Source: Vulcanimicrobiota bacterium
GTDB lineage: Bacteria > Vulcanimicrobiota > Vulcanimicrobiia > Vulcanimicrobiales > Vulcanimicrobiaceae
Length of the DNA: 64,000 nt
Direction: 5' to 3'
Assembly: GCA_963812155.1 (NCBI GenBank)
Contig: CAWETW010000001.1
Coordinates: forward strand, 416,001 to 480,000
Below, in pieces: positions 4,344-63,752 of the stretch (position 1 is its first letter; each line of letters starts with the position of its first letter). A program made the translations under genes and the position numbers. Below the pieces are notes generated by a model that saw only the letters and a list, made by a program, of their open reading frames with translations, was not told where the DNA came from and did no database searches.

Positions 4344-4355
4344 GCTCGTGTCCCG

Positions 4356-4724
4356 TTAGGCCGTGCCGGTGAAGCTGCGATAAATGCGGATCAGTGCTTC
4401 TTTTTGGTCGACCGTCAGACGCGGGTCGAGTTTGATCGCGTTTTCGACGCCGTGCGGACTGTCGCCGCCCGAGGTATCGTCGAGCAAGCCGGCTTGCGCG
4501 TACATCGTTTCGGCGGAGAGATGCAGCGCGTTCGCGATTTGCTTGAGCACGTCGGCCGAAGGCTTATAGAGTCCGCGCTCGACTTGGCTCAAATACGGAT
4601 TGGAGATTTTCGCAATTTCGGCGAGTTGACGCATCGAAAGATTCGCCAGTTCGCGCTGACCGCGAATGAAGTCTCCGAGACTGCGCCAGGAGCTCGCGCC
4701 CCGGTCGTCGTCGGAATCGCTCAC
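4356..4724 (-). CDS. XRE-family HTH regulator (Rv0474/MLDSR-like)
   Basis: LGDFIRGQRELANLSMRQLAEIAKISNPYLSQVERGLYKPSADVLKQIA; GTG start overlaps phaC stop (GTGA). Confidence 0.85.
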   Translation of the reverse strand: MSDSDDDRGASSWRSLGDFIRGQRELANLSMRQLAEIAKISNPYLSQVERGLYKPSADVLKQIANALHLSAETMYAQAGLLDDTSGGDSPHGVENAIKLDPRLTVDQKEALIRIYRSFTGTA

Positions 4725-6478
4725 GCTTTGCGCTTCCGTTCGGGAGGCCGGAACGGCGTGCCGCCTTCGTTGCGAACGTAACCGCCCGGAGCCGGTTCGC
4801 CGTCCGGCAGTGCGTACGGCGCGACCATCTCGCCGCCGTGCGACTGCGCCCACGCCGCCCAGTCTTCCCACCAACTCCCGGGACGGCGTTCGGCCGTTTC
4901 GAGCCACTCTTCGGCGCTCTCGCCGCGCAGCGCCCGCTCCTTCGTGTAGTACAGACTCTTCTTGCCGCCCGGCGGATTGACGATGCCGGCGATGTGGCCC
5001 GAGTTCGAGAGCGTAAACTTCGCCGGGCCGCCGACGTTTTGCGTCGTAAGATAGGTGGCGCGCCACGGTGCGATGTGATCGCTTTCGGCGCCCAACACGT
5101 AGAGCGGCGACGCGATGTTGTTTAAATCGATCGGCGTATCGTCGATCGTGAACGCGTTCGGCTTCACGATAGCGTTGTTGAGATAGCAGGCGCGCAGGTA
5201 TTGCGAATGCATCTCCACCGGCATCCGCGTCGAGTCGCTGTTCCAGGCGAGAATGTCGAACGCGGGCGGCTGCTTGCCCTTGAACCAGCTATTGACCACG
5301 TAGCTCCAGATCAGGTCGTGCGAGCGCATCCAGTCGAACGTCTTTGCCATCTCGGCGGATTCCAAATAGCCGCGCTCGCGCATGCGCCGTTCCAGGCGCA
5401 CGATCGTATCTTCGTCGGTGAAGATGCCGAGATCGCCGGGAAGGCTGAAGTCGATCAGGGTATTGGTGACGGTCGTAGCGTGCACGCGGCCCGATTGGCC
5501 GTGCGCGGCGAGGTATGCAAGCGCGATCAGCGCGAGCGTTCCGCCGAGGCACAGCGCCGCAATGTTGACTTCCTTTGCGCCGGTAATCCCCTGCACCGTG
5601 TCGAGTGCCGCCAGCACGCCGGATCGCAAGTAGTCGTCCATCTTGTAGTGCGACATCGACGCGTCGGGATTGCGGTAACTGATCATGAAGACTTGATGGC
5701 CGTGCTGCACCGCCCATTCGACGAAGGAGCGTCCCGGCGCCAAATCCATGATGTAGTATTTGTTGATCCACGGCGGGCTGCACAGAAGCGGGCGCGCGTG
5801 GACCTTCGTCGTCTGCGGCTCGTACGCGATTAATTCGATTAGGTCGTTGCGCATCACGACGCGCCCGGGCGTCGCGGCGATGTTCTTGCCGAGCTCGAAG
5901 CCCGACTTGTCGACCTGGCGCGGATAGCCGCCGTTGTTCTGGACGTCGTCGAGGAAGTTGCGCATGCCTTGGACGAGGCTCATCCCGCCGCTGTTCATCG
6001 CTTCTTTCAGGACGCCGGGATTGAGCCACGGCACGTTGCTCGGCGCGACGGCGTCGAGCATGAGTTGCATGGCGAAGCGCGCCTTGCGTTTTGTCGCTTC
6101 GGGCAAGCGCGTCGACTCGACGAGCTGCATCGCTGCTTCGCAGCGCACGCGGTAGTCCTCAACGATTCCCGCGAGCATGGGATTTGCCGACCACTCGGGT
6201 TCGCTAAAGCGTTTGTCCGGCGCGGCGTCGCGCTGACCAGCCGATGCGACGGGTTCTTGGCCGCCCAGGCGTCGCATCATGTTCAAACCGACGTTTTGTT
6301 CGGCGAGCGCGAAGCCCGAAAGCCAGGTGCTCATGCGCATCGGATCGGCCATCGCATCCGCCATGACGGCTTTCAGTGCATCGTTGAGCGAGGCGGGATC
6401 CAGCCCGGTGACGTCGATGCCGTAACTCAAGTCGTCGGCGGTCATCTGGAGGGTTGGCGATTCGAAAAGCGCGGTCAC
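4721..6478 (-). CDS. phaC: Polyhydroxyalkanoate synthase (class I/II-like)
   Basis: DKRFSEPEW, ATPGRVV, PPWINKYYIMDL, ISYRNPD, lipase-box variant ALCLGG, DHIAPW, SGHIAGIVNPP; GTG start overlaps phaB stop. Confidence 0.95.
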   Translation of the reverse strand: MTALFESPTLQMTADDLSYGIDVTGLDPASLNDALKAVMADAMADPMRMSTWLSGFALAEQNVGLNMMRRLGGQEPVASAGQRDAAPDKRFSEPEWSANPMLAGIVEDYRVRCEAAMQLVESTRLPEATKRKARFAMQLMLDAVAPSNVPWLNPGVLKEAMNSGGMSLVQGMRNFLDDVQNNGGYPRQVDKSGFELGKNIAATPGRVVMRNDLIELIAYEPQTTKVHARPLLCSPPWINKYYIMDLAPGRSFVEWAVQHGHQVFMISYRNPDASMSHYKMDDYLRSGVLAALDTVQGITGAKEVNIAALCLGGTLALIALAYLAAHGQSGRVHATTVTNTLIDFSLPGDLGIFTDEDTIVRLERRMRERGYLESAEMAKTFDWMRSHDLIWSYVVNSWFKGKQPPAFDILAWNSDSTRMPVEMHSQYLRACYLNNAIVKPNAFTIDDTPIDLNNIASPLYVLGAESDHIAPWRATYLTTQNVGGPAKFTLSNSGHIAGIVNPPGGKKSLYYTKERALRGESAEEWLETAERRPGSWWEDWAAWAQSHGGEMVAPYALPDGEPAPGGYVRNEGGTPFRPPERKRKA

Positions 6479-7230
6479 ATGTACCATCCGCCGTTGACGT
6501 TGTATACGGCGCCGGTGATGTACGCGGAGCGTTCGTCGACGAGAAAGCGCACGAGGTGCGCGACCTCTTCGGGCTGTCCGAGACGGCGCTTCGGCGTCTG
6601 TGAAATCGCGGCTTCGATGGCCGCGCTCGGCATGGCTTTCGTCATCTCGGTATCGATGAAGCCGGGGGCGACCGCGTTGACGGTGATGTGGTTCTTGGCG
6701 ACCTCGAGCGCAACGGTCTTGGTGAGACCGAGGAGCCCCGCCTTCGCTGCCGAGTAGTTCGCCTGGCCGAAGTTGCCGCTCTCGCCGACGACCGAGCTGA
6801 TGTTCACGATCCGGCCGAAGTCCTGTGCGATCATCGTTTCGATGACCGCCTTGGTCATAAAAAACGGTCCCGAAAGATTTACTTGCAGAACCGCTTGCCA
6901 TTCCTCGACCGTCATTTTGCGGACGGTGTGATCGCGCGTGATGCCGGCGTTGTTGATGAGGTAGTCGATGCGTCCGTGTTCCTCGACGATGCCTTCGACG
7001 ACGCGCCGGCAGTCGGCGTAGATGCCGACGTCCCCCTCGTAAAAGTGAATCCGGGAGGCACTCCCGTTGAGGCGAATGCGGAGTTTCTCGGTGCGTTCCC
7101 GGTCGACCGGAAGCCCCAAGATGGCGACGGTTGCTCCGTCCTGGGCAAGGAGGCGGCTGATCGCCCCTCCGATGCCACCGGCGCCTCCGGTGACGAGTGC
7201 GACTCTTTTTTCAAGCGGTAGACTGCTCAC
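6475..7230 (-). CDS. phaB: Acetoacetyl-CoA reductase (SDR)
   Basis: TGGAGGIG, NNAGITRD, GQANYSAAK, PGFIDTEM, YNVNGGWYM; coupled to phaC. Confidence 0.85.
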   Translation of the reverse strand: MSSLPLEKRVALVTGGAGGIGGAISRLLAQDGATVAILGLPVDRERTEKLRIRLNGSASRIHFYEGDVGIYADCRRVVEGIVEEHGRIDYLINNAGITRDHTVRKMTVEEWQAVLQVNLSGPFFMTKAVIETMIAQDFGRIVNISSVVGESGNFGQANYSAAKAGLLGLTKTVALEVAKNHITVNAVAPGFIDTEMTKAMPSAAIEAAISQTPKRRLGQPEEVAHLVRFLVDERSAYITGAVYNVNGGWYM

Positions 7231-44129: not shown

Positions 44130-44148
44130 AGATTCTCTCTAGGGAAAT

Positions 44149-44224
44149 TGGCAGGGCGGACAGGACTCGAACCTGCAACCAACGGTTTTGGAGACCGTTG
44201 CGCTACCAATTGCGCCACCGCCCT
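44149..44224 (-). tRNA. tRNA-Trp (CCA)
   Basis: AGGGCGG...ACGGT CTCCAAA ACCGT...GGTTCGAGTCC...CCGCCCT GCCA; complete cloverleaf. Confidence 0.97.
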
Positions 44225-44612: not shown

Positions 44613-44734
44613 GCAGTGGATTCGCCTTATTTCATGCGGGTTTGCGCCGCATCGACCTCGTGAACGATCGCCCTCGAAACGCCCGCGGTTGCCAAACGGT
44701 TGCCGTGCGCTGCCAGGCATCTCTCGCCGAAGCA

Positions 44735-44900
44735 TCAATTCTGACCGGTCGCACGGCGCGCCTCTGCTGCTGCGATCGCGTTGTCGATACCGGCGACCGC
44801 CCGCTGCCCGCGACGACGTGCCCGTAGACGTTCAAGGTTGTCGAGGCCGAGGAGTGCCCGAGCAACGCGGCGACCGTCCGAACGTCGATTCCGCCTCCTT
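44735..44900 (-). pseudogene. Tyrosine integrase C-terminal remnant
   Basis: GIDVRTVAALLGHSSASTTLNVYGH (box II, catalytic Tyr), then frameshifted QRAVAGIDNAIAAAEARRATGQN*; N-terminal part absent. Confidence 0.8.
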
Positions 44901-44939
44901 GCGCACTCTTACGGCGATAGACGCTTCCCTGACCTAGCA

Positions 44940-44985
44940 CAAAAGAGGAGCCGCCCGTAATATTTGCGAGCGGCTCGATTTTTTT
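44940..44985. terminator. Bidirectional rho-independent terminator
   Basis: aaaa-gagccgc...gcggctc-ttttttt. Confidence 0.6.
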
Positions 44986-45028: not shown

Positions 45029-46268
45029 TCACGGCGAAAGCGAGTAGACGGTGCCGATGCCGCCGCTTGAACCACCTGTACCACCAAGTTCGGTCGTGCC
45101 ATAGAGCGTGCCGTTCACGTTGGTGAGGCCGCCAGCCGGGTTCGCGCCGTCGGGGGAGCCGGCGAAGCTATAGAGCACGGTTTCCGTCCCCGAGGTCGTC
45201 ACGCTAAAGACCGCGCCGCTCCCGCTTGCCCCACCGTAATAGGTCGTGCCGTACAACGTATTCCCAACGTTGGTTAGGCCGGCGACCGGAGTTTCGCCAT
45301 CGGGGCTGTTCCCGAAGCTGTAAAGCAGGCTATACGCGCCGGAGGATGCTTTGATGCTGAAGACTGTGCCGAAACCATTTGCACCACCGGACGAGGTCGT
45401 TCCGTAGAGCCTACCGTTCACGTTGTTAAGGCTTCCGTACACTGGGGTCGCACCGTCGGTCGGTCCATCGGCAAAGCTGTGGAGTTGCCTATACATGCCG
45501 GAGGTTGTAATACTAAAGACCGTACCGCATCCCGAACTACCGCACCCTGCACCACCTGATTCGAGTCGTGCCGTACAGCGTGCCGTTTACATTGGTCAGG
45601 CCCGAAGACGGGCCGGCGCCGTCAGTCCCGCCGGCGAAGCTGTAGAGCACGGTTTCCGTGCCTTTCTTGGTGATCTTAAAGACGGTACCGGCTCCGTTCG
45701 CGCCACCTTGGGTGCTCGTGCCATAAAGCGTGCCGCCCACGTTGGTTAGGCCGGAATATGGGACTGCAGCGTCGCTTCCGCCGGCGAAGCTGTAGAGCAC
45801 CCTCGCCGCGCCGGACCCTGTGATCTTATAAACCGTCCCTTCGTTGTGTGTCCCACCTCTGGTAGTTGTGCCGAACAGCGTGACGTTCACGCTGGTCAGG
45901 CCCGCAAATGGGACCTTGGGTTGACCGCTGCCGCCAAAGGTGTGGAGCAGGCTGTACGTTCCGGAGGGCGTGATTGAAAAGACCGTGCCGGTGCCCGAGC
46001 CGCCGAATCTGGTCGTGCCATAGAGCGTTCCGTTTACGTCGGTCATAGTATCCCCTGGGATCGCGCCGTCGGGGCTGTCCGCGAAGCTATACAGCACGGT
46101 TTCCGTCCAGAGTGGACGCGCGTGCCGATTAGGCAGCGCAGGTCGCGATTGCAGCGAGGGCGTGAGCGACCCGGCGCCCGGAGCGAGATTCGATTGAGGC
46201 GTGCCGGAACAGCCCGCAAGAATAATGACCGTAAAGGCGACAACTGCGGCGCCTATTCGTGAGTGCAT
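45029..46268 (-). pseudogene. GloVer-type tandem-repeat lipoprotein, 1-bp frameshift near 45563
   Basis: LAGC lipobox; about 7 repeats ETVLYSFAGxxDGAxPxxGLTNVNGTLYGTTxxGGxxxGTVF; ORFs 45537..46469 and 45029..45496 join if one base is removed (GGC ACG ACT [C] GAA TCA). Confidence 0.8.
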
Positions 46269-46626
46269 GTTTCGTCCGTTTAAGCACAACGACGCCGGGC
46301 CGCTTAAGGGTCCAATTGGGGAAACACGGTACGCTAACGATTTCATGAGATTTCCCTTCGGGGCTGAAGACCCGAGACGCACACGGCCGCAGCGTCCCCC
46401 GCTCATGTATCGATGATGCGGTTTCTGCATGATATCCGGAACGGACACTTGGACAACTGACTTGGACAAGTGGTGCTCTCGCCCGAGCCGACCGAGGCCG
46501 AGCCAGACTAGACTCGTTTACGCCAGCAGGCTCCTCGAACACGCATGCCTCGGTGCAGAAGCTCCCTTTTGAACATCAGGGTTCATCCGCTAACTCTCAA
46601 CTGATGAGACCCCTAAGAAGGTCCCA

Positions 46627-48148: not shown

Positions 48149-48220
48149 GAACACGGCGGCCATTGCTCCCGCCGCCGAGCCCAAGAGGATCTCGGGTTGT
48201 AAATCGTCGTGAGGAAAGGA

Positions 48221-48841
48221 ATGTTGAGCCCCATGAAGACCGAGAAAATCGCTCTTTTCGATCTCGATGGCAGTCTGGCCGACTTTGACGGTGCCATGCG
48301 GCGGGATTTACGACGAATGCGTTTCCCTGGTGAACCCGAGATCGCCGACGACACCAACTTACACGATCTCGAAGATCGGTTCGCGTATATAAAAGCGCGA
48401 ATGGATTTCATCAAATCGAAGCGTGGCTGGTGGCGCCAGCTCCCCCGCATCGATTCCGGGTTTGACATCGTGAGCAAGGCTCAAAGCATCGGCTACCATA
48501 TAGATATCCTCACGAAAGCCCCTCGTAAGCAGCCTCAAGCCTGGATGGAGAAGGTCGAATGGTGCGAGGTGCAGCCGGAACTAGCTCACGCCGACATTCA
48601 CCTCGCAATGAACAAAGGACTCGTCTACGGCAAGTTGTTGTTCGACGACTATCCGGACTTCATGACCCAATGGCTGCGCCACCGGCCACGCGGGCTCGGT
48701 ATTATGCCGGTGACGCCGTACAACGCCGATTATAGGCATCCGAACGTCGTGAAATTCGACGGCACCAATGTAGGAGCCGTCGTTTCTGCAATGCAGATCG
48801 CGTACGACCGTGACGAAAAAGAGCCGCTGCTCTTGTCGTAA
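48221..48841 (+). CDS. HAD-family 5'(3')-deoxyribonucleotidase-like protein (NT5C type)
   Basis: FDLDGSLADF, ILTK.P, AWMEKVEW, NKGLVYGKLLFDDYP, PYN. Confidence 0.75.
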   Translation: MLSPMKTEKIALFDLDGSLADFDGAMRRDLRRMRFPGEPEIADDTNLHDLEDRFAYIKARMDFIKSKRGWWRQLPRIDSGFDIVSKAQSIGYHIDILTKAPRKQPQAWMEKVEWCEVQPELAHADIHLAMNKGLVYGKLLFDDYPDFMTQWLRHRPRGLGIMPVTPYNADYRHPNVVKFDGTNVGAVVSAMQIAYDRDEKEPLLLS

Positions 48842-51890: not shown

Positions 51891-53300
51891 CTACTGGTCG
51901 TCGGGGGAATGGTAGTCGTCGGGCTGATGCAAGAAGTACTGCTTGTCGTACGGCGACTGGAATTGAACGAATTTGCGCGGCGGCTTGGTGAAGTCGAAGG
52001 CATCTTTTGCCGGCGAGATGGCGCGCCGGTCGCTGGCGGCGAGACGCTTCAGGTGAAACTGATCTTCGATAAATCTCAGGATGCTGCCGTGCTCGTAGTG
52101 AACGTGCGAAACGTAGCCCTGCTTGGCGTAAGGCGAGATGATCAGCATCGGAATGCGCATCCCGAGCCCGTCGTAGTCCACGTACTTCGGCGGATCGGGA
52201 TCGAACCAACCGCCATAATCGTCCCAAAAAATAAAGATTGCCGTCGAATTCCAGTATTGGGATTGACCGACCGCGTTGACGACTTGCGTCACCCACGAAG
52301 GACCACTCTTGGAGCCGCTTCCTGCGTGGTCGGAGTTGGCCCACGTCGGCGTTACCCAGCTGACAGTGCGCATGTTCCCATTCGAAACGTCGTTGAGAAA
52401 CTGCGAGGGCGGCGTAATGACGTCGTTTTTCCAGTCGGGCCCGTTACCGTTTTGGTAGATATGGTTAATGGCCTGATAGGCGCTCCAAATGTTTCCGACG
52501 TCGTTGGTGGAGGCGGCATAGAACGCCCAGGAGATCCCCGTCTTGTCGAGTTCGTCGCCGAGCGTCGTTGGATCCCAACAAACGACTTCGCTCCCGTTGG
52601 GGATCTGACGCTGCGGACCGACCTCGGAGATTTTGTCTCCGGAACCGCCGGGGCAGCCCCACGAACTGCTGGGGTAGTTTACGGCGCTCTCCGCCTGCCC
52701 GGAGATAATGTACTGGTGCGAGATGAAACTGCTCGCATCGAAGTTCGACGCGAACATCTTGTCGGCGAGCACGTACTGCCCCGCCATGTCGAAGTACGGC
52801 TGCACCTCGGTTTGCGGGACGTAGCTATACTGAGGGTCGGCGTTGGGACACTTCGGCTCTCCGAAGTGGCCGCAACCCGCATACTCGTTATTGAATCCGT
52901 TCATGCGACAGTTCGTTCCGGGAATGCTTCCGGTACCGTTGCATGCGGCAAAATACGAGTTCGACGAGTGGTCGATGTCCCAGGACGTTTCGAGTCCCAA
53001 GGGTTGAAGCGTAATTTTGTTTCCGTTAGAGTCGTAGCCGAACGTTGCGGTTTTTGCTCCCGGATACCCGTAAAACAAATTATTGAAGCTGCGGTTCTCT
53101 TGAACTACAATAACGATGTGCTGGATCTTGCCGCTGGTGGTGTGAGTGTGCACTCGTTCCGGCAAACCGAAATTCGGAGCCGAGAAAGACGCGGGAATAC
53201 CGGGCGACGAGGTCGAGCCGCCGTTGGCGCTACAGGCGCTCAGCGACAGCGCGGCCGCCGCCACCAGAGACACCCGAATCGCGCCTGAAGACAATCGCAT
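51891..53300 (-). CDS. Phosphoesterase / phospholipase C family lipoprotein
   Basis: LSAC lipobox; IQHIVIVVQENRSFNN, WDDYGGWFD, GMRIPMLIISPYAK. Confidence 0.9.
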   Translation of the reverse strand: MRLSSGAIRVSLVAAAALSLSACSANGGSTSSPGIPASFSAPNFGLPERVHTHTTSGKIQHIVIVVQENRSFNNLFYGYPGAKTATFGYDSNGNKITLQPLGLETSWDIDHSSNSYFAACNGTGSIPGTNCRMNGFNNEYAGCGHFGEPKCPNADPQYSYVPQTEVQPYFDMAGQYVLADKMFASNFDASSFISHQYIISGQAESAVNYPSSSWGCPGGSGDKISEVGPQRQIPNGSEVVCWDPTTLGDELDKTGISWAFYAASTNDVGNIWSAYQAINHIYQNGNGPDWKNDVITPPSQFLNDVSNGNMRTVSWVTPTWANSDHAGSGSKSGPSWVTQVVNAVGQSQYWNSTAIFIFWDDYGGWFDPDPPKYVDYDGLGMRIPMLIISPYAKQGYVSHVHYEHGSILRFIEDQFHLKRLAASDRRAISPAKDAFDFTKPPRKFVQFQSPYDKQYFLHQPDDYHSPDDQ

Positions 53301-53536: not shown

Positions 53537-54538
53537 TTATTGGATCAACTGTACGTCACCGAACTCGTGATAGCGGTAGCCACTTTCAGCGGCTTTCGCG
53601 TATGCGTCTTGAAGAAGGTCGGCATCGACGAAGGCATGCAGCAGCGAAATATGCGTCGCATTTGCGTCGTGGAAACCGGATAGCAATACATCGACGGCTC
53701 TCGGTCGATACGTTTCGCCGATAACGAGATCGGTCCAACCGCTCGTGGCGACCACGCCCTCGTCCGTCGCGGCACTCTCGAGCGCTCGGACCACGGTTGT
53801 TCCGATCGCGATCACTCGACGGCCGTTTCGTCGTGCGTTTTCAACACGCTCCGCCGTAGCATGCGAGACCGTAAAACGTTCGGGTGCCGGGCGTTCGAAA
53901 GCCTCGAAGCTGGACACTCCGCAGTGCAGCGTGACGCTCGCGATTTCCATGCCGCGAGCGCATAGCTCGGTCACGACGGATTTCGTAAAAGGGCGCGCTG
54001 CGGAGGGCATCTCGGAGGACCCCATCTCACGAGCAAACACAGTTTGATAATCTCGTAGGGGAAAACTCCGGCGGAGATATCCGTAGCTAATCGGCGTTCC
54101 GAACTCGGCGAGGTACGCGTACATCGGGGCATTGAGCCGAAATGTCCCGTACCACAAACGCGGTTGTCGCGGCTCGACCGGCGCAATCATCGCGGCCGTG
54201 GCACCGCCCGGGAGTGTTAGCGTTTCACCAACAGCGACCCGCCCGCGCGGCTCGACCATCCACAGCCGCTCGTCGATCTTCGTGCTCACGTGAAGGGGAA
54301 TTGCGTCGCCGTTGCCTTGCCGCGCGAGGATCGAGGCAGGCAACGTTGCTGAATCGTTGACGACGAGCAGATCTCCGGCGCGCAGCAGCCTCGGCAGATC
54401 GCTAAAATGCGCGTGCGTATGCGAGCGCTTCTTCCGGTCGGTCACGAGCATCCGTACGCCGTCGCGCGCTACGCCCCGGTATTCGGGCGGCTCTGTCGCC
54501 TCAATCAAGCCGCGCGAAAGCATTTGTGCAGCCCTCAC
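53537..54538 (-). CDS. QueA-like protein (non-canonical subfamily)
   Basis: GDLLVVNDSATLPA, YQTVFA, GSSEMPSAARPF, TLHCG, AIGTTVVRALES, YRYHEFGD; departs from canonical QueA motifs (LPPYI, APTAGLHF, NFHLP, FSYGD). Confidence 0.85.
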   Translation of the reverse strand: MRAAQMLSRGLIEATEPPEYRGVARDGVRMLVTDRKKRSHTHAHFSDLPRLLRAGDLLVVNDSATLPASILARQGNGDAIPLHVSTKIDERLWMVEPRGRVAVGETLTLPGGATAAMIAPVEPRQPRLWYGTFRLNAPMYAYLAEFGTPISYGYLRRSFPLRDYQTVFAREMGSSEMPSAARPFTKSVVTELCARGMEIASVTLHCGVSSFEAFERPAPERFTVSHATAERVENARRNGRRVIAIGTTVVRALESAATDEGVVATSGWTDLVIGETYRPRAVDVLLSGFHDANATHISLLHAFVDADLLQDAYAKAAESGYRYHEFGDVQLIQ

Positions 54539-55293
54539 GCCGTCACGAGATCCGAAGCGCGCACGCGCTCGAAGCCACCCTTCATCTCGGCAATGGCGCG
54601 CATCAGCGCGCGGGCCGAATCCGCAGGATCCCGAAGCTCTGACGGATCGGCGTCGGGCATCGCATCTCGATGCATCGCCGTGTTCATGTCGCCCGGATCG
54701 AATACGAGCACGCGAGTCGAACTATTGCCTTTCACCTCGGCTGCCAGCACGCGTGAAACGTGTTCGAGCGCGGATTTGCTTGCGCCGTATCCACCCCACG
54801 CCGGATAAGCTTCCACGCCGGCGTCCGACGTGATGTTGACGATCGTGCCCGGATCGGATCGCGCCATGAGCGGCAACGCGTGTTGGATCAGATGGATCGG
54901 CGCAAAAACGTTGACGTCGAAAACGGCGCGAAACGTCTCGCGGTCGAGTTGATCGATTCTCGGTAAGGGCGTTTGTCCGAGCGTCGAGGCGTTGTTCACG
55001 AGCAGGTCGAGCCGTCCGGCCTGTTTCGCGGCCGCGACGAGCGCATGAACGTGTGCCGGATCCGCGACGTCGCCGGGGATCGCGGTGAGATTGCCGAGCC
55101 GCCCCTCGTCCTTCGACAAGGTACGGGACACGTCGTTGAGGATGGCACGACGGGTGCGTTCGAGCCGGAGCGGATCGCGGCCGTCGATGATGACCGTGAG
55201 TCCCTTACCGAGCAGCTCCCAAGCGAGCGCCTTGCCTAATCCTCGCGACCCTCCCGTGACGATCGCCACGTGTCCTGATTGAAACCATTCCAT
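54535..55293 (-). CDS. Short-chain dehydrogenase/reductase
   Basis: TGGSRGLG, LLVNNAS, NITSDA, YGASK, DPGDMNT; coupled to QueA-like gene (GTGA). Confidence 0.9.
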   Translation of the reverse strand: MEWFQSGHVAIVTGGSRGLGKALAWELLGKGLTVIIDGRDPLRLERTRRAILNDVSRTLSKDEGRLGNLTAIPGDVADPAHVHALVAAAKQAGRLDLLVNNASTLGQTPLPRIDQLDRETFRAVFDVNVFAPIHLIQHALPLMARSDPGTIVNITSDAGVEAYPAWGGYGASKSALEHVSRVLAAEVKGNSSTRVLVFDPGDMNTAMHRDAMPDADPSELRDPADSARALMRAIAEMKGGFERVRASDLVTA

Positions 55294-55303
55294 AACGAGA
55301 ACG

Positions 55304-55334
55304 AGTTTATAACCTCAAGTATAGTTGAGGTCAA
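55304..55334 (-). promoter_or_regulatory. SoxR box within MerR-type 19-bp-spacer promoter
   Basis: Palindrome ACCTCAAgtatagTTGAGGT (55312-55331); minus strand TTGACC-19 bp-TAAACT, 10 nt before SDR ATG. Confidence 0.9.
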
Positions 55335-55341
55335 GATTGAA

Positions 55342-55779
55342 ATGGAACTTCTTACCGTCGGCGAGATCGCCACGCGAAGCGACCTCCCCGTCTCGACGAT
55401 TCACTTCTGGGAATCGAAAGGCTTGATCCGCAGCACGCGCAGCAACGGCAATCAACGGCGGTTTGCGCGAGCGGAACTACGGCGCATCGCCGTAATCAAA
55501 ATTGGTCAGCGCGCAGGTATTCCGTTATCCGAAATCCGCGACGTCCTCGACACGTTGCCGGAAGACCGAGCCGTTTCCGCGAGAAACTGGTCGGCGCTAT
55601 CGAATCGTTGGAAGCGCAGCCTCGACGACCGCATCGCGCGCCTCACCGCGCTACGCAATCAGCTCGGGCAGTGCATCGGCTGCGGTTGTCTTTCGCTCGA
55701 CAAATGCTGGCTTCGCAATCCCGATGACAAGCTTGCGGCGCAAGGGCCCGGCCCGCGTCTGCTCGATTTCAGCCGATAA
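55342..55779 (+). CDS. soxR: Redox-sensitive transcriptional activator SoxR
   Basis: LTVGEIA, SNGNQRRF, [2Fe-2S] motif CIGCGCLSLDKC, GPGPRLL. Confidence 0.97.
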   Translation: MELLTVGEIATRSDLPVSTIHFWESKGLIRSTRSNGNQRRFARAELRRIAVIKIGQRAGIPLSEIRDVLDTLPEDRAVSARNWSALSNRWKRSLDDRIARLTALRNQLGQCIGCGCLSLDKCWLRNPDDKLAAQGPGPRLLDFSR

Positions 55780-55871: not shown

Positions 55872-57233
55872 CTACTCGTAGTCGGGCGGTCGCGGATCGT
55901 CGGGTTGCTGGTAAAGGAAGAAGTTCGGCCCTTTCGGCGCGACGATCGGCACGAACGGGCGCGGCCGCTGCATGAAATCAAAGCAGTCCAACGCCGGCGA
56001 GTTCGACCGCGCGTCGGCGGCGGCGAGCCGTCCCAGCCCGAAGACGTCTTCGGCGAACTTCAATATGCTGCCCGTTTCGTAGTGCACGTGCGAAACGTAG
56101 TCGTGTTTTGCGAACGGCGAGATGACCAGCAGCGGGACGCGGAAACCAAGTCCGTCGTAGTCGAGGTGCTCGGGCGGCTCGTGGTCGTAGAGACCGCCCC
56201 AATCGTCCCACGTGACGAAGATGGCCGTGTTATTCCAAAAGCGGCTTCGCCCGACCGCGTTGACCAGCGAGGTCACCCACGACGGACCGAATCCACCGCC
56301 GCAGTTCACGTGATCGGAGTTGGCGCAGATCGGCGTGATCCACGTGACGTTCGCCAATATTCCTTTGCCGACGTCGCTGATGAACCGCTTCTGCGGTGTA
56401 ATTAAATCCTTCTTCCAATCCGGGCCGTAGCGAATGTGCCGGACGGCCTGGTAGCCCGACCACTCCCCGCCGTCGCGAAAGACCGTGCTCGTATAGAATC
56501 GCCACGAGCGGCGCGCTTGGTCGAGCTCGTCGCCGAGCGTCGTGTAATCGAAGCACGTAGGCTGAGTCTTGCCGTACGTCCGCTGTTGGGTCACGGTCTG
56601 CACGACGTCTTGATCGCCGCCTTCGCAGCCCCAATCGCCGTACGGGAGATCGACGCTGCCATGAGCTTGTGCCGCGATGATGTACTGATGCGAGACGAAA
56701 CTTTCGTCCAAGTGCGACTGATGCATGTGGTCGGCCAGCACCCATTCGTGCGCCATGTCGAAGTACGGTTTCGAATCGGAATGCGGTACGTAGACGTACT
56801 CAGGATTTTTGGGGCCGCCCCAGTTCGAATCGAGATTGAATCCATCCATCCGGCAGCTGGTTCCCGGCAACTTTCCCGTTCCGCGGCACTCTCGAATCAT
56901 AGCGTGCATCGAATGATCGAGCACGTATTGCGTCGCCAAACTCACCGGTTGCAGCCGGATCGTCTCGCCAAAGGAGTTTTTGCCGCTGGAAACGGTATCG
57001 GCGTGCGGGTAGCCCTGGAACAGGTTGTCGAAACTGCGGTTCTCTTGGTAAATGATGACGACGTGAAAGATCTTGCCGGCGCCGCTCCCGGAATCGGGCA
57101 AAAGACCGCCGCTGCCCGCGGCCGGCACGAATGCGCCTTCGCCCGCCGATTGACGCGACGCACTCGAGCACGCCGCGAACGCAACCGCCGCAATGGCGGC
57201 CGCTACGGCAATGGCCGCACGCCCAATGTTCAC
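55872..57233 (-). CDS. Phosphoesterase / phospholipase C family lipoprotein
   Basis: FAAC lipobox; [39 protein letters not shown]; close paralog of 8279..9598. Confidence 0.9.
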   Translation of the reverse strand: MNIGRAAIAVAAAIAAVAFAACSSASRQSAGEGAFVPAAGSGGLLPDSGSGAGKIFHVVIIYQENRSFDNLFQGYPHADTVSSGKNSFGETIRLQPVSLATQYVLDHSMHAMIRECRGTGKLPGTSCRMDGFNLDSNWGGPKNPEYVYVPHSDSKPYFDMAHEWVLADHMHQSHLDESFVSHQYIIAAQAHGSVDLPYGDWGCEGGDQDVVQTVTQQRTYGKTQPTCFDYTTLGDELDQARRSWRFYTSTVFRDGGEWSGYQAVRHIRYGPDWKKDLITPQKRFISDVGKGILANVTWITPICANSDHVNCGGGFGPSWVTSLVNAVGRSRFWNNTAIFVTWDDWGGLYDHEPPEHLDYDGLGFRVPLLVISPFAKHDYVSHVHYETGSILKFAEDVFGLGRLAAADARSNSPALDCFDFMQRPRPFVPIVAPKGPNFFLYQQPDDPRPPDYE

Positions 57234-57297: not shown

Positions 57298-59964
57298 ATG
57301 CTCTCCACCGCAGCGCTAGCAGGCGATGGGTTCGTCGGCCGTCACGACGAGCTGGCATTTTTGCGCGAATCGTTTGTGCGCGCGCGCGATTCCGGCGCGC
57401 GTTTCGTTCCCGTTGAAGGCGACGCCGGCATCGGCAAATCGAGCCTGATTGCGGAGTTTGCCGCGTCGGTTTCCAGCGAAGCGCTGGTCGCGCGCGGCGA
57501 CTGCAGCGAGCACGTGCGCGATCCTTACGGACCGTTCTGGCCGATTTTCGACCGCATCGGAACGCGCGGGCTGCACCGGCCCTACCGCGCACGCGGACAA
57601 CGTCCCAACGCTGCCGAGAAGGCCGCCTTCTTCGACGCCGCGCTGCGCGCGCTGGAACGTTCGGCGTTGCGCAAGCCGCTGGTTGCCGTCATCGAAGATT
57701 TGCAGTGGGCCGATTCGGCGACGCTCGAACTGCTCAAGCACCTCATGGCGCATCTTTCCGGCGCGCGCGTCATGTTGGTCGCGGCATTGCGCGTCGACGA
57801 CGCCGTCAATCCGCCGTTGGCCGCGTTTCGCCATTTCGTCGCGCGCCGTCGCGTCGACGGCATTCGCCTGCGCGGATTGCATCGCAACGAAATCCGGGCG
57901 ATCGTTGCACGCCATGCGACCGGCATCGCGATTGCGCCGGCCACGCTGTCGCGTATCGAAGTGCTCTCCGAAGGCAACCCGCTTTTCGCCGAGGAGCTGG
58001 CGCGCATCGCGGCCGAGACCGGCGGCGTGAACTTGGCGACGCACGCGCCCTTATCGCTGCAAGCCACGCTCGGCGAGCGCACGATCCGGCTCGACGCGCA
58101 CGAACACGCCGTGCTGGTGCGCGCCGCCATTCTCGGCCAGCGCTTCGATGCGGCCTTTCTCGGAAGTATTCTCGACGAGCCGGCGCACAGCGTCCTGCGC
58201 GCCGTGCAGCGCGCCGTGGAAGCGGGCATTCTCGTCGAAGTGCCGCCGAGCCCGTACGCGTTTGCGTTCCGGCATGCGATGTTTCGCCAGGCCTTTGCCG
58301 ACCAGATGATCGTCGGGCTCGCGGCGCCGCTGCACGCTCGCATCGCGCGCGAGCTCGAGACGGCCGACGATTGCGAGACGCACGTCGCCGAACTCGCCTA
58401 TCATTGGTCGGAAGCGCGCGACGCGGCACGCGCCCGGCACTATAACGAACGTGCCGCGGAGTCGGCGTGGAGCCTTTACGCCTACCGCGACGCGATCGGG
58501 TTTTACGGCACCGCATTGCGATGGGAGTACCCGCCGGGTGCGGCGCGCGCGGCGCTCTACGAACGCATGGGCACGCTGCTTTCGATCGAAGGGTGCGGCG
58601 AAGAGCCGACCGAGTGGTTCGAAAAGAGCCGCGCCGAGTACGCGCGCATCGGCGACGTCGAAGGCGCCTCGCGCGCGCTGCTGCGCCTGGCGGACCAGTA
58701 TTGGGTGGATGCACGGACCTCCGAAAGTTACACCGCCGCAGCCCAAGCGGCAACGGCGGCAGGCGCGCTGGCCAAGCCCGCGATTCGCGCCGAAGCCGAA
58801 CTGACGCTCGCGCGGTATGCGATTACGCTCGGCGATCCGGCGCTGGCGCAACGTCACTTGGACGCCGCCGGGGCGTTGCGCGCGCACTTCAACCCGGAGC
58901 TACGCGCCTGTTTTCACGAGGTCCGGGCCGAAACGCGCACCGCGCTCGGACTCACACAGGCCGCGTTGCGCGACTGCCGCCGCGCATCGGCGATCGCGCA
59001 CGAAACCCAGTCCGGCGAACTCATCGCCCAAATCGAGAATAACTACGCGCTCGTCGCGTTCGATCTCAGCGAGCTCGACCTGGCGATCGAGCGCCATGGA
59101 ATCGCCCTCGCGGAGGCGCGGCGCACGTCCATGAACTGGCGCGTGGCGTACTCGGCACTCAACTTTGCCAACACGCTCACCTTCACCGGCGAACTCGAAC
59201 GAGCGCGCGCGCTGGTGCGCGAAGCGCTCGAGAGCGGCGTCACGACGGCGACGTTTAAAACGAAAGCAGCCGCCGTGGGAGTCCCGCTGGCGCTGCGGCT
59301 CGACGACCGCCATCTGCTCGAGGCCTGCGCCGACGACGATGCCCTCGCGCTCGCCACGCGCTCGGCAGAGCCGCAACGCATCGCATCGGTATCGGCGGCC
59401 TTCGCCGAGCTCCGCCGCGCGCAACGAGCCCCCGAAGCAGCGCGTGCCCTGCTCGGCGAGGCGCTCGCGGCACTCCGGCAGCCGCACCGGTGCACGAGTT
59501 TGGCGCTACAGGCCGGCGCCTGCCATGACGACAGCATGCAAACCGCAGCGCAACGCCTCCTCGCGGGCGCCCCGCTGCGCCCGCGGATCCGGCGGGCCTG
59601 CCGGCTCCTTATCGCGCTCGCGCAGGCCGGCGGGAGCGGCGATCGGAGGCGACGCGTCGGCGCGGCTGCTGCGACCGCGTGCGCACACGCCGGCTGGCGC
59701 CTCCATCAAGCGCGTGCGCTGGAAGCAGCGCGTTCGACCGGCGGCACTCCCGCCCCTGAGACCGCCGGCGCCCTCGCGTTGAGCCCGCGCCAAACCGAAG
59801 TGGCGCGTCTGGTCGCCGATGGCGCGACCAATCGCGCGATCGCCGAACGCCTTCACATCAGCGAGCACACCGTCGAGCACCACCTATCGACGATCTTCAC
59901 TCGTCTCGGTTTGCATTCGCGATCGGCTCTCGCGGCTCACGTGGAGCGTTCGCTCACCGCATAG
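57298..59964 (+). CDS. LAL-type regulator (AAA ATPase + TPR-like + LuxR HTH)
   Basis: FVGRHDEL, Walker A GDAGIGKS, IEDLQWAD, GNPLFAEE, LSPRQTEVARLVADGATNRAIAERLHISEHTVEHH. Confidence 0.93.
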   Translation: MLSTAALAGDGFVGRHDELAFLRESFVRARDSGARFVPVEGDAGIGKSSLIAEFAASVSSEALVARGDCSEHVRDPYGPFWPIFDRIGTRGLHRPYRARGQRPNAAEKAAFFDAALRALERSALRKPLVAVIEDLQWADSATLELLKHLMAHLSGARVMLVAALRVDDAVNPPLAAFRHFVARRRVDGIRLRGLHRNEIRAIVARHATGIAIAPATLSRIEVLSEGNPLFAEELARIAAETGGVNLATHAPLSLQATLGERTIRLDAHEHAVLVRAAILGQRFDAAFLGSILDEPAHSVLRAVQRAVEAGILVEVPPSPYAFAFRHAMFRQAFADQMIVGLAAPLHARIARELETADDCETHVAELAYHWSEARDAARARHYNERAAESAWSLYAYRDAIGFYGTALRWEYPPGAARAALYERMGTLLSIEGCGEEPTEWFEKSRAEYARIGDVEGASRALLRLADQYWVDARTSESYTAAAQAATAAGALAKPAIRAEAELTLARYAITLGDPALAQRHLDAAGALRAHFNPELRACFHEVRAETRTALGLTQAALRDCRRASAIAHETQSGELIAQIENNYALVAFDLSELDLAIERHGIALAEARRTSMNWRVAYSALNFANTLTFTGELERARALVREALESGVTTATFKTKAAAVGVPLALRLDDRHLLEACADDDALALATRSAEPQRIASVSAAFAELRRAQRAPEAARALLGEALAALRQPHRCTSLALQAGACHDDSMQTAAQRLLAGAPLRPRIRRACRLLIALAQAGGSGDRRRRVGAAAATACAHAGWRLHQARALEAARSTGGTPAPETAGALALSPRQTEVARLVADGATNRAIAERLHISEHTVEHHLSTIFTRLGLHSRSALAAHVERSLTA

Positions 59965-60041: not shown

Positions 60042-63000
60042 ATGATTGGAGCTCGTCCGTTACGCCGCTGGTTCGCCGTTGCAACCATCGCATCGCTCGC
60101 CGTCATTGCCCGGCCCACGCTGGCCGGAACGACCGGCAGCCTCGCGGGCACGGTGGTTGAAACCCCAAGCGGGACGCCCATTGCGAACGCGACCGTGACC
60201 GCCAGCAGCCCGTCGCAGGTTGCCTCGACGCACACCGACGCTCGCGGCGCATTCGTATTGCTCTCGCTCGCGCCCGACACGTACACGATCTCGATCGTGC
60301 GCACGGGTTACGAACCGTTGGCGTCGAGCGGCGTGACCATCTTCGCCGACCAATCGCAGAACTTGACGTTCCGGCTGCAAAAGAGCCTCAAAACGATCGC
60401 GCAAGTGCAATCGCGCTCTTCCCTCAACGAAGTTCGGCCCGGCACGATGACCGACGTTTACTCGGTCAATCCCGCCGTGACGAAGGCCGCGGCGCCGATC
60501 GGCGGAGGGGGCGGCTTGAACAACGTCTATTCCGCAATCGCCGCGATGCCGGGCGCCTACGTTCCCAACGGGCAGATGGGCGTCAATCAAACCGTCTACA
60601 TCCGCGGTGGGTACTACGATCAAATCGGCTACGAGTACGACGGCGTGCCGGTGAACCGCTCGTTCGACAACTATCCGGCGCACTCGGCGTCGACGCTCGG
60701 TCAGCAGGAGCTGCAAATTTACGCCGGCGGCGGCGGCGCGAACGCCAACGCGACCGGCCTCGCCGGCTTCATCAATCAAGTCGTCAAGACCGGCACGTAT
60801 CCCGGATACGCAAGCCTCTCCGGCATGATCGGCACGCCGACGTTCTATCACGACGTTTCCGTCGAGGCCGGCGGTGCCACACCCGACCGGCTGTTCTCCT
60901 ACTACGTCGGCACCAGCGGCTACAATCAGGACTTCCGCTACCTCGATCAATCCAACGGCGGCGATCTCATGAACGTCTTTCCGTACGGCGCCGGGCCGAG
61001 CAACCTGACGACGCTTCTCTCCTTCTATCCGGCCGTCTATCCCACGTGCACCGCCGGTGCGACGTACACAAATCCGGCGACGAAGTTTCTCAGCAACGAT
61101 CCCGGCTGTTTCTCGGCGTTCTTTCCGGCCTACAGCGAAGTTTCGTATATCGCCGGCCGCGAGGTCGTAGCCAACTTCCATTTCGGCGTGCCGCACAAGA
61201 GCGACGGCGGCAAGGATGACGTCCAGCTGCTCTACACGTCGTCGGCGCAGTACCGCCAGTTTTACAGCGGCGTCGACGACGGCGGTCAAGGGTTTACGCA
61301 AAGCCTCTACACGCAAGACTGGGTCAGCAAGCCCGCGCGCTGGCCCGATTTCTACACCTTCCCCGGCAACACGCAGTTCTTGCAAACGGCAAAAACCTCT
61401 CCGATCGCGTATCTCTTTCCCGGATCGCCAACCGATCGCTGTGCCAACGTTTTCGGCGTACCCAACTCTTGCCCCAGCGGCACGTTCGCCGACCTTCCAA
61501 ACGACTATCGCGACGCCCGCTGGGATACGGCCAGCATCGTGAAGCTGCAGTACCAGAAGAACTTCGGCAGCAACGCGTATCTGCGGCTCTTCGGGTACAC
61601 CTTCTACTCGAACACCAACCGCAGCGGCGCCGCGCGGCGCGGCATCGGCAGCGGCTACGGCGCGACCAACTACGACTACGAAGTCGACGGTCACACCCGC
61701 GGCCTGCAAATGGATTTCGGCGATCAAATCAACGCGCAAAACTTGCTCAGCGCGAACGTCAACTACATCACTTCGACGACGCTGCGCGTCAACAACTTCA
61801 ACTATTTGAACACGTCGGGCCAGCAGGTGAGCAATCTCACCAACGGGAGCGACTGCTACGCGTATCGCGGCGGAAACATCGGTAACGAATCGTTCCACGC
61901 CGGCGACCGCGCGCCGTGCAATCTCTTCATCAGCCAGGGTTCGTTCGGGAGTCCGTTCAGCCCGCGCTTCTTTGGTCCCAATCCGTGCGGGACCGGCGCG
62001 TTGCCGGCAGGTTCCGCGGCGTGCCAGGCCGGCGCCACGTTCCGGCTGACGTTCTTGGGCAATCAAGCGCTGATCAACGGCGTGACCCCGGCCTTCACCA
62101 ACATCTCGCTGGGCGACGAATGGCGCCCCAACGACAAGATCGACGTGAGCATCGCCGTGAAATATGCCGACGACCAATTCCAACTCGATGACACCAACAC
62201 GGCCGCTAAGAACTTCTGGTTTGCCGCCGCGCAGCAAGAGTTCTGTTACAATCCGGTGACGTTCGAGCCGGTGCTGCTGCCGACGCGGCCGCAGAACGCC
62301 TCGGTGATCGAACCCTACGTCAGCTTCAACTGCCCGATCGATAACTCGAGCGGCAAGCCGGTGCAGACCGTGCATCCCGACGGCAAAAACGGCCATCTGC
62401 TGCTCTCCAACAACTATCCCTCGAAGTACACGCAGACGTACTGGCAGCCGCGCCTCGGATTCACCTACACGGTGAACCCCGACACCGTGCTGCGAGCGTC
62501 GGCCGGCGTCTACGCGCAAGAACCTCAGAACTACGAGATTCAGTACAACACGGCGGAACCGAATCTCGCCGAACAGATTCTGGGCTTCCTGCCCTTCGGG
62601 TTCACGACGCCGTTCCACAACTCGCAGGCGCAGTTCTCCGACAACTACGACGTGTCGTACGAGCGCCATTTTAAAGGCACCGACATGTCTATGAAGGTGA
62701 CGCCCTACTATCGCTATGCGACCCAGCAGCTCGACGAGGCCGTCTTCATTCCTACGCTGCTCGCATCGCCCGCACTCAACGCCGGCACGGAGTCGAGTTA
62801 CGGCGTCGAACTGCAGTTCACCAAGGGCGACTTCAACCGCAACGGCCTTTCCGGCATCTTCTCCTACACGTATCTCAACTCGACGGAGAAGTGGAACAAC
62901 TTTCAGGGCGTCGGCGTCAACGCGGTGAGTCCGTACAATCAGTATATCCAAGAGTACAACGCATTGACCAAGGCGGGTGGCGGCGCGCCCTGTTACTCCG

Positions 63001-63752
63001 ACCGGGCCAACACGCGTCCGCGTCCTGGCTGCGGCAAGAATGCGATCCTCAATCCGTATTACAACGCACCGCTGCAGCCGCTGCTCGACCCGAACGCGTG
63101 GTACGTGACGGGCCTCGATTTTCCGTACACGTCGCCCAACGTGTTCGCGCTGGTGCTCAACTACAAACACGACCGGTTTTCGATTACGCCGGCGCTGACG
63201 CTCAATGAGGGCGCCGCGTACGGGAACCCCTCCGACTTCCAAGGCCTCGACCCGCGCGTCTGCACGGCCAATCAGGGAAGCGTCGGTATCGCCAACTCGA
63301 ACCCGCACACGGCCGACTACACCTCGTGCACGCTGGCGGCAACGCCTAGCGGTTCGCTCTACATTCCCAATCCCGAGACGGGGAAGTTCGATACGTTCGG
63401 CCAGTTCACGCAGCCGTGGCAGTTCAACATGGGCTTGCAGATGCACTACGACATCAGCCCGCAGGTGTCGGCGAACCTCACGGTCGCAAATCTCGTCAAC
63501 GCGTGCTTCGGCGGTTCGAACACGGCGTGGAGCCGGCAGTTCCCGCCCAGCAACACGGTCTGCGGCTACTCGCCGAACCTCTTCTACATCAGCAACTTCT
63601 ACAACGGGACGGGTCCGAATGACGTCAAGGCGAACGGCGTACCGCTCAATCCGTTCTTCCAAAACGGTTTTAGCCCGTCGTACGGCGACGTGAACTCGTT
63701 CAACTATCCGCTGCCGATCAATTTCTACATTCAACTGCAGGTCAAGCTGTGA
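60042..63752 (+). CDS. TonB-dependent receptor with carboxypeptidase-regulatory-like N-domain, Cys-rich
   Basis: Signal peptide, GTTGSLAGTV, plug YIRGG..DQ.GYEYDGVP, barrel QPRLGFTY, C-terminal FYIQLQVKL. Confidence 0.9.
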   Translation: MIGARPLRRWFAVATIASLAVIARPTLAGTTGSLAGTVVETPSGTPIANATVTASSPSQVASTHTDARGAFVLLSLAPDTYTISIVRTGYEPLASSGVTIFADQSQNLTFRLQKSLKTIAQVQSRSSLNEVRPGTMTDVYSVNPAVTKAAAPIGGGGGLNNVYSAIAAMPGAYVPNGQMGVNQTVYIRGGYYDQIGYEYDGVPVNRSFDNYPAHSASTLGQQELQIYAGGGGANANATGLAGFINQVVKTGTYPGYASLSGMIGTPTFYHDVSVEAGGATPDRLFSYYVGTSGYNQDFRYLDQSNGGDLMNVFPYGAGPSNLTTLLSFYPAVYPTCTAGATYTNPATKFLSNDPGCFSAFFPAYSEVSYIAGREVVANFHFGVPHKSDGGKDDVQLLYTSSAQYRQFYSGVDDGGQGFTQSLYTQDWVSKPARWPDFYTFPGNTQFLQTAKTSPIAYLFPGSPTDRCANVFGVPNSCPSGTFADLPNDYRDARWDTASIVKLQYQKNFGSNAYLRLFGYTFYSNTNRSGAARRGIGSGYGATNYDYEVDGHTRGLQMDFGDQINAQNLLSANVNYITSTTLRVNNFNYLNTSGQQVSNLTNGSDCYAYRGGNIGNESFHAGDRAPCNLFISQGSFGSPFSPRFFGPNPCGTGALPAGSAACQAGATFRLTFLGNQALINGVTPAFTNISLGDEWRPNDKIDVSIAVKYADDQFQLDDTNTAAKNFWFAAAQQEFCYNPVTFEPVLLPTRPQNASVIEPYVSFNCPIDNSSGKPVQTVHPDGKNGHLLLSNNYPSKYTQTYWQPRLGFTYTVNPDTVLRASAGVYAQEPQNYEIQYNTAEPNLAEQILGFLPFGFTTPFHNSQAQFSDNYDVSYERHFKGTDMSMKVTPYYRYATQQLDEAVFIPTLLASPALNAGTESSYGVELQFTKGDFNRNGLSGIFSYTYLNSTEKWNNFQGVGVNAVSPYNQYIQEYNALTKAGGGAPCYSDRANTRPRPGCGKNAILNPYYNAPLQPLLDPNAWYVTGLDFPYTSPNVFALVLNYKHDRFSITPALTLNEGAAYGNPSDFQGLDPRVCTANQGSVGIANSNPHTADYTSCTLAATPSGSLYIPNPETGKFDTFGQFTQPWQFNMGLQMHYDISPQVSANLTVANLVNACFGGSNTAWSRQFPPSNTVCGYSPNLFYISNFYNGTGPNDVKANGVPLNPFFQNGFSPSYGDVNSFNYPLPINFYIQLQVKL

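Follow-up and report, generated by a model that had tools for sequence, protein, structure and literature searches.

A conserved pairing of a short-chain dehydrogenase/reductase with a QueA paralog at a SoxR-type promoter: candidate S-adenosylmethionine chemistry independent of Tgt

The 64,000-nucleotide stretch analysed here (the window; G000:C1:416001-480000 of a 2.96-Mb assembly that is 83.85% complete) carries a divergent soxR gene and, on the opposite strand, overlapping genes for a short-chain dehydrogenase/reductase (SDR) and a paralog of QueA. The unit formed by the SDR and the paralog is real, conserved and uncharacterised. The QueA-like protein is not canonical QueA, it does not depend on Tgt, and the regulator of the pair is swappable among four mutually exclusive sensor types. 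It is tentatively proposed that the pair is induced by redox stress, oxygen or nitric oxide (NO) and carries out a two-step, Tgt-independent reaction on a small molecule using S-adenosylmethionine (SAM). The nearest named proteins are those of Candidatus Cybelea / Eremiobacterota. The comparison was made with a phylum sample of 30 loci, which includes the locus itself and one (L030) from the unpublished genome G117, and with a GTDB set of 80 paralog loci from several phyla. The control consists of 76 canonical queA loci from a metagenome scan that was aimed at an intermediate clade and also gave one paralog and three unclassified loci; these are mostly from other habitats, so the control is a loose one.

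A QueA paralog paired with an SDR, apart from canonical QueA and Tgt

Databases name the paralog QueA. Its scores miss the two equivalog cut-offs for QueA (199.5 against 324 for NF001140 and 165 against 267.45 for TIGR00113), and it shares 32% identity with the canonical QueA of the same genome. An earlier note on this DNA had remarked that no tgt lies nearby. This is true of the locus, but canonical queA, tgt and queG are present at other sites of the genome, so the paralog is not the only copy. The shifted motifs described in the note (PISYGY, SEMPSAARPF, GFHDANATH and YHEFGD) are all in the translation, and the scores, the separate queA and the diagnostic columns described below agree with its view that the enzyme differs from canonical QueA.

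The paralog is found in 34 of 151 genomes of the phylum (at least 47% identity), and all 30 of the phylum carriers that were fetched hold a second, weaker match. Relatives occur in Actinomycetota, Chloroflexota, Acidobacteriota, Deinococcota and Bacillus. The ESM Atlas gave only PF02547 clusters, viral contigs gave one locus at 30% identity, and the plasmid search returned mostly canonical queA. In a quick tree covering 90 of 193 rows, 16 canonical QueAs form one branch apart from the paralogs with a Shimodaira-Hasegawa-like approximate likelihood ratio (SH-aLRT) of 100, and a small intermediate group (P0214, P0249 and P0265) adjoins the canonical branch.

When 177 paralogs were compared with 85 canonical QueAs column by column, 27 columns were at least 93% identical in both and about 40 diagnostic columns separated the two. 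The QueA core (GTT, RxLE, H290 and GD) is as strictly kept in the paralogs as in QueA. The canonical R67, H184, H223, N299, PLPP and TFxPV positions are replaced, and the canonical invariant motifs AAPTAGLHF, TFxPV..HxMH, TNFH and FxSxGD are not found in the paralog. Ten residues, E176, R182, H205, E220, G288, H290, H296, H324, E325 and D328, are present together in 168 of the 177 paralogs and in none of the canonical proteins; E176, R182, H296, H324 and E325 are specific to the family. The loop that follows LHxG has 12 residues in 155 of 177 paralogs, whereas it has 19 in 84 of 85 canonical QueAs. The intermediate clade (here with P0218) has a longer loop with HxMYEE and TNFH together with E176/R182, and has Arg at 296.

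The AlphaFold model of the paralog (predicted local distance difference test score 95.3) matches only QueA structures, with a Z score of 28.6 over 273 aligned residues and a root-mean-square deviation of 8.8. Domain re-orientation was considered as a trait of the paralog and rejected, as the model deviates from QueA crystals by 8.6-9.5 A and a control model of the canonical QueA of the same genome by 7.8-9.5 A. Net charge was considered as evidence that tRNA binding had been lost and was uninformative (means of -5.4 and -4.4).

The tight coupling to an SDR claimed in the earlier note extends well beyond this genome. The SDR stop and the GTG start of the paralog overlap by 4 bp, and an SDR lies upstream of the paralog in 30 of 30 phylum loci. 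Of the 80 GTDB loci, 77 have the SDR immediately ahead of the paralog; two of the others are cut by contig ends and one, L060, has no SDR. None of the 76 canonical queA loci has an SDR. Fusions of the two proteins were seen in three of ten long representatives scanned (P0196, P0206 and P0208). P0206 represents a three-member Streptomyces cluster; the single-case fusions could be frameshift artefacts. L060 (positions 4065-7017) is the one clear exception, in which a DosS-like kinase and regulator are followed directly by the paralog. A further SDR-paralog locus, from a metagenome (L195:3-1373), has a SufR-like gene in divergent orientation and stands outside the 80-locus tally.

The SDR has the classical TGxxxGxG, NNAS and S-YxxxK motifs, keeps the catalytic S156, Y169 and K173, and has invariant SDA and YxxWGGYG motifs of its own. 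Its nearest solved relatives are YciK-type proteins, YIR035C and sepiapterin reductases; it falls short of the YciK cut-off NF006509 (112.5 against 269). Basic residues in the nucleotide loop, as a rule a sign of NADP(H) preference, are present in the SDR and suggest that it uses NADP(H).

The relation to Tgt was followed in 50 carriers picked from the 80 loci by isolate status or long contigs. A tgt gene was found in 22 of these and not in the other 28; canonical QueA scored above cut-off in 13. In the 11 cultured actinomycete carriers neither tgt nor canonical QueA was found, and one of the 11 has full-length queC. A full queC is found in a tgt-less Streptosporangium (G152:C9:128726-129349) and possibly belongs to deazapurine DNA modification or a natural product. 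In a Streptomyces genus sample, 40 of 61 genomes have a strong paralog match (34 of them unbroken and 6 split in two; the scan scored 34 candidates per genome, and its misses are unsure). None of these 40 carriers has tgt, and the single tgt-family match is in a non-carrier. One Streptomyces contains a divergent tgt-family gene (G240:C42:83531-84601), which may likewise serve deazapurine DNA modification or a natural product. At the level of the locus, tgt is present in 34 of 76 canonical queA loci and in 0 of 80 paralog loci. The host Tgt that a QueA role requires is present in the source genome but not family-wide, and the paralog does not depend on it.

The SoxR promoter and the swappable sensors

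The SoxR of the window passes the TIGR01950 equivalog cut-off (193.3 against 116.9 bits). Its translation has the C-x2-C-x-C-x5-C motif, which is found in 19 of 20 soxR loci, the remaining one being truncated, and which is given as the SoxR cluster motif in the accessible text of PMC4601167. The 48-bp gap between soxR and the SDR gene holds TTGACC, a 19-bp spacer, TAAACT and 10 nt to the SDR ATG. The sox box overlaps the -35 hexamer and sits in the 19-bp spacer, the architecture of a SoxR-activated promoter. Verified Streptomyces SoxR targets share this architecture in the accessible parts of PMC8867992 and PMC4146615. Both the divergent layout of soxR and the coupled pair and the near-perfect sox box reported in the earlier note were found again.

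In a scan of the assembly with a sox-box consensus, this box alone came within one mismatch of the 14 arm positions; the next best site had two. On this single scan, SoxR in the source genome has an apparent one-operon regulon. A stock promoter scan, which is limited to spacers of 16-18 nt, missed the promoter for that reason. In the phylum sample, soxR and a box face the SDR in 20 of 30 loci, and the spacing of -35, 19 bp and -10 is kept in all 20. The SDR starts 6-10 nt past the -10 hexamer in 18 of the 20, five relatives having 6-7 nt; for the remaining two loci the start pattern halted at an earlier GTG. The SDR mRNA would be near-leaderless.

Sox-box-like promoters upstream of the SDR are also found without an adjacent soxR, in Amycolatopsis, Actinophytocola and others (L064, L066, L070, L071, L074, L076, L081, L094, L101, L108 and L113). 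These loci are likely controlled in trans. A distant soxR was considered as support for such control and set aside as not discriminating, since it scores above cut-off in 9 of the 11 box-only genomes but also in most kinase-type actinomycetes.

Four sensor types were found at the 80 loci: SoxR (20), a DosS/DosT-GAF-like kinase (16), an AirS-like GAF kinase with a cysteine motif (9) and a SufR-like protein (6). No locus holds two types, where independence would predict about 11 overlapping pairs, though kin are not independent. The best PDB matches of one DosS-like kinase are the DosT/DevS GAF domains (E 4e-32 to 6e-31). In 15 of the 16 DosS-like kinases there is a His-Pro at the haem-ligand position; haem binding is a prediction. 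The nine GAF kinases have C-x-C-x17-19-C, which is compared with the AirS motif over its last three Cys positions only. The SufR-like proteins match TIGR02702 over the full length and keep three Cys; at 94-107 against a cut-off of 178.8 bits they are SufR-like only, not SufR. SufR itself carries an Fe-S cluster. Both kinase types are accompanied by a NarL-type regulator. In the phylum sample, a NarL-type regulator is found immediately upstream in 7 of the 10 loci without soxR. According to the accessible text of PMC4601167 and PMC8774646, DosS/T bind haem and sense oxygen and NO, and AirS binds a [2Fe-2S] cluster through C-x7-C-x-C-x17-C.

The DNA before the SDR varies with the sensor. A MerR-type motif is found in 18 of 20 soxR loci and the motifs of the other classes in 12/15, 4/9 and 4/5 of theirs; the patterns were picked by eye from the same sequences, which makes the within-class rates circular. 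No cross-class matches of these upstream motifs were found. The MerR-type motif also occurs in 9 of 25 sensor-unassigned loci that have upstream DNA. On the quick tree the soxR-adjacent label changes nine times, at least seven of them forced by well-supported branches, and the close relatives L040 and L044 have the same three-gene unit with different sensors. At E 1e-15, the loose canonical control gave no match to any of the four sensors. Because the same pair adjoins DosS-like, AirS-like and SufR-like sensors in other lineages, the trigger is suggested to be broader than that of SoxR and to include oxygen, NO and Fe-S redox changes. Nothing tested points to the phenazine or quinone substrates that the earlier note had in view.

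A counterpart may exist in Streptomyces coelicolor. In the accessible parts of PMC9739842, PMC11272600 and PMC4932002, SCO1801-SCO1804 are annotated as a NarL-type regulator, a kinase, an oxidoreductase and 'QueA', the last being filed as QueA in PMC4932002. The gene order is like that of the Streptomyces locus L079, and by annotation and synteny SCO1801-SCO1804 likely holds the same pair under a DosS-like kinase. In actinorhodin-producing cultures of a soxR mutant, Table S2 of PMC4146615 gives increases of 6-fold for SCO1803 (q 0.2) and 5-fold for SCO1804 (q 0.09), a rise that fits redox induction weakly. There is no entry for SCO1801-1804 in the supplements of PMC5288332.

Proposed reaction and alternatives

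How might the pair work? Oxidation of the iron-sulfur cluster of SoxR would switch on the SDR and the paralog, and the two enzymes would catalyse successive steps on a small molecule and not on preQ1-tRNA. The paralog is predicted to draw on the ribose of SAM through sulfonium chemistry of the QueA type, and the SDR to be an NADPH-dependent carbonyl reductase. The expected acceptor is a compound with a nucleophilic group that arises under redox, oxygen or NO stress, either the redox-active compound itself once reduced or a damaged endogenous metabolite, and the gained His and Glu residues may create the site for this acceptor or for a metal. That the SAM chemistry of QueA is here applied to a new, small acceptor is proposed because the core is kept, the canonical loop and invariant residues are replaced, a reductase is gained and tgt is lost. 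The parts of this proposal differ in strength. That the pair is induced, and that the SDR and the paralog belong to one shared pathway, we infer with high confidence. The 27 residues shared with QueA suggest that the paralog probably uses SAM, and with slightly more assurance the acceptor is predicted to be a small molecule. The accessory genes of the loci, glyoxalase/VOC and a luciferase-like PF17648 gene (3 of 80 loci), are not RNA-modification genes and are counted for a small-molecule acceptor. The steps proposed for QueA in the accessible text of PMC10491745 are loss of adenine from SAM, addition of the amine to a vinyl sulfonium, ring closure and release of methionine. The word 'ribosylates' in the earlier note is loose, as QueA transfers the SAM ribose and isomerises it to an epoxycyclopentanediol (same source).

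The alternative that survives best, though unlikely, is a stress-induced, Tgt-independent modification of RNA or protein, in which the paralog attaches a five-carbon unit from SAM to some amine that is not preQ1, and the SDR completes the product. In the accessible text of PMC10491745 tRNA is the only known target of the QueA fold; both QueA domains are kept in the paralog, and Lys plus Arg is modestly lower than in QueA (10.0% against 11.8%). However, no RNA-modification or translation gene recurs across the 80 paralog loci, while tgt recurs in the canonical ones; the distribution of the paralog is patchy and accessory, and most of its members have the shortened loop. The earlier note had named an RNA modification as its second option. 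It persists in the Tgt-independent form, and the Tgt-dependent form fails in the carriers where no tgt was found.

That the paralog works without SAM, as a metal enzyme or in metal handling, is quite unlikely. The gained E176, H296, H324 and E325, with the retained H205, E220, H290 and D328, would bind iron or another metal in response to Fe-S or haem stress, and the SDR would supply reduction. The His/Glu signature that separates the paralogs from QueA favours this, as do four sensor types that are all predicted Fe-S or haem proteins, one of them SufR-like; the strict retention of the QueA core argues against it.

Improbable, too, is an acceptor-free cleavage of SAM, or of a damaged SAM derivative, by which methionine and adenine would be recovered during oxidative or NO stress, with the SDR and an optional glyoxalase clearing the reactive five-carbon carbonyl that remains. 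Methionine synthase activity is lost under oxidation. The mechanism proposed for QueA does free adenine and methionine via a reactive intermediate (accessible text of PMC10491745), the SDR profile is nearest to carbonyl reductases of the YciK, YIR035C and sepiapterin-reductase kinds, and a glyoxalase/VOC gene is present in 6 of 80 loci, either inserted or fused, and in two of them is joined to the SDR. Against this, genes of the methionine or SAM cycle do not recur in the paralog loci, and no lyase activity of the QueA fold was found reported in the accessible literature examined.

A stress-induced back-up QueA that makes epoxyqueuosine on preQ1-tRNA is very improbable despite the database name and the eight of 50 genomes in which the paralog accompanies tgt without another QueA-type gene, given the missed QueA cut-offs, the tgt not found in 11 of 11 isolates and 40 of 40 Streptomyces carriers, the canonical queA in the same genome, and Tgt enzymes that insert queuine directly and require no QueA (accessible text of PMC12301720).

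Several observations weigh against the proposed SAM-dependent reaction on a small molecule. Several QueA-invariant residues are lost, and structures have not shown where QueA binds SAM (PMC10491745, accessible text). Overall charge fails to separate the paralogs from canonical QueAs. Those eight genomes have tgt with the paralog as their only QueA-type gene, and absences from metagenome-assembled genomes are unreliable, as G187 has canonical queA yet no tgt. None of the four sensors is nearby in 29 of the 80 loci. Many SoxR detoxification regulons include a transporter, but none recurs with the pair. In S. coelicolor, SCO1803 and SCO1804 were not among 13 retested genes, and those that were retested failed complementation and were dismissed by the authors (PMC4146615).

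Taken together, the favoured reading, held at somewhat less than even odds, is a second SAM-ribose chemistry in a widespread, wrongly annotated sister family of QueA that has its own NADPH reductase: a five-carbon unit from SAM may be built or disposed of on a target other than tRNA. This would be a core response to redox, oxygen and NO stress, important enough to have been wired to four unrelated predicted Fe-S or haem sensors in different phyla.

The locus and its comparison with known systems

Table 1. Positions of the unit within the window
Feature	Positions	Strand	Details
QueA paralog	53537..54538	-	333 aa from GTG; 328 aa from ATG at 54523; PF02547 254.6 bits
SDR	54535..55293	-	252 aa; adh_short 142 bits
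-10 hexamer TAAACT	55304..55309	-	10 nt ahead of SDR ATG
Sox-box dyad CCTCAAG-TATA-GTTGAGG	55313..55330		18 bp, within 19-bp spacer
-35 hexamer TTGACC	55329..55334	-	2 bp shared with dyad
soxR	55342..55779	+	145 aa; four-cysteine [2Fe-2S] motif at 55672-55707

PF04185 phosphoesterase genes lie on both sides of the unit (51891-53300 and 55872-57233). They were considered as parts of it and rejected: they are not found within the 1.5-kb flanks of the other 29 phylum loci, and the genome has 56 tblastn matches to the family, a striking expansion in an assembly of about 3 Mb. Further along are an AAA-ATPase/TPR/LuxR regulator (57298-59964) and a 1236-aa protein like a TonB-dependent receptor (60042-63752). 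On the minus strand at 45029-46469 two successive Gly/Thr-rich repeat open reading frames have no Pfam match and are possibly one frameshifted gene; near them a short integrase-like remnant (about 44632-44940) and a tRNA-like stretch (about 44130-44210) were seen by eye. An NT5C-type 5'-nucleotidase (PF06941), of a family common in phages, is encoded at 48209-48841.

No description of the paralog family was found in a literature search that left subscription papers and most supplements outside, and a prior mention may exist. In the accessible text of PMC10491745, no enzyme other than QueA is known to donate the ribose of SAM, and the mechanism and substrate binding of QueA are unsolved. If the proposal is true, a paralog that works without Tgt would carry out SAM chemistry of a new kind and could serve as a small-substrate model of the QueA mechanism. 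The 'queA' annotation would be corrected in Streptomyces and in many soil bacteria that apparently cannot make queuosine, SoxR regulons would gain a new enzyme class, and SCO1801-1804 would gain a testable role.

The paralog has the fold of QueA (PF02547; TIGR00113/NF001140; PDB 1WDI, 1VKY and 1YY3) and has in common with it the near-invariant positions described above. Unlike QueA, it lies below the equivalog cut-offs and outside the canonical clade, is paired with an SDR and not with tgt, and occurs without tgt. The SDR has its best PDB matches, by sequence and profile, among YciK- and sepiapterin-reductase-like SDRs and shares their catalytic tetrad, but lies below the YciK cut-off and has its own motifs. 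With the non-enteric SoxR regulons (S. coelicolor ecaA-D, SCO2478 and SCO0320ext, and those of S. avermitilis; accessible text) the unit shares the SoxR equivalog, an 18-bp dyad over the -35 hexamer, a 19-bp spacer and an oxidoreductase target. It differs from them in its apparent single operon, which has no pump or monooxygenase, and in its QueA-fold enzyme, a kind of enzyme that is absent from the SoxR targets listed in the accessible parts of PMC4146615 and PMC8867992. The switch is an ordinary one; the novelty lies in its cargo and in the repeated rewiring of that cargo to cofactor-based sensors.

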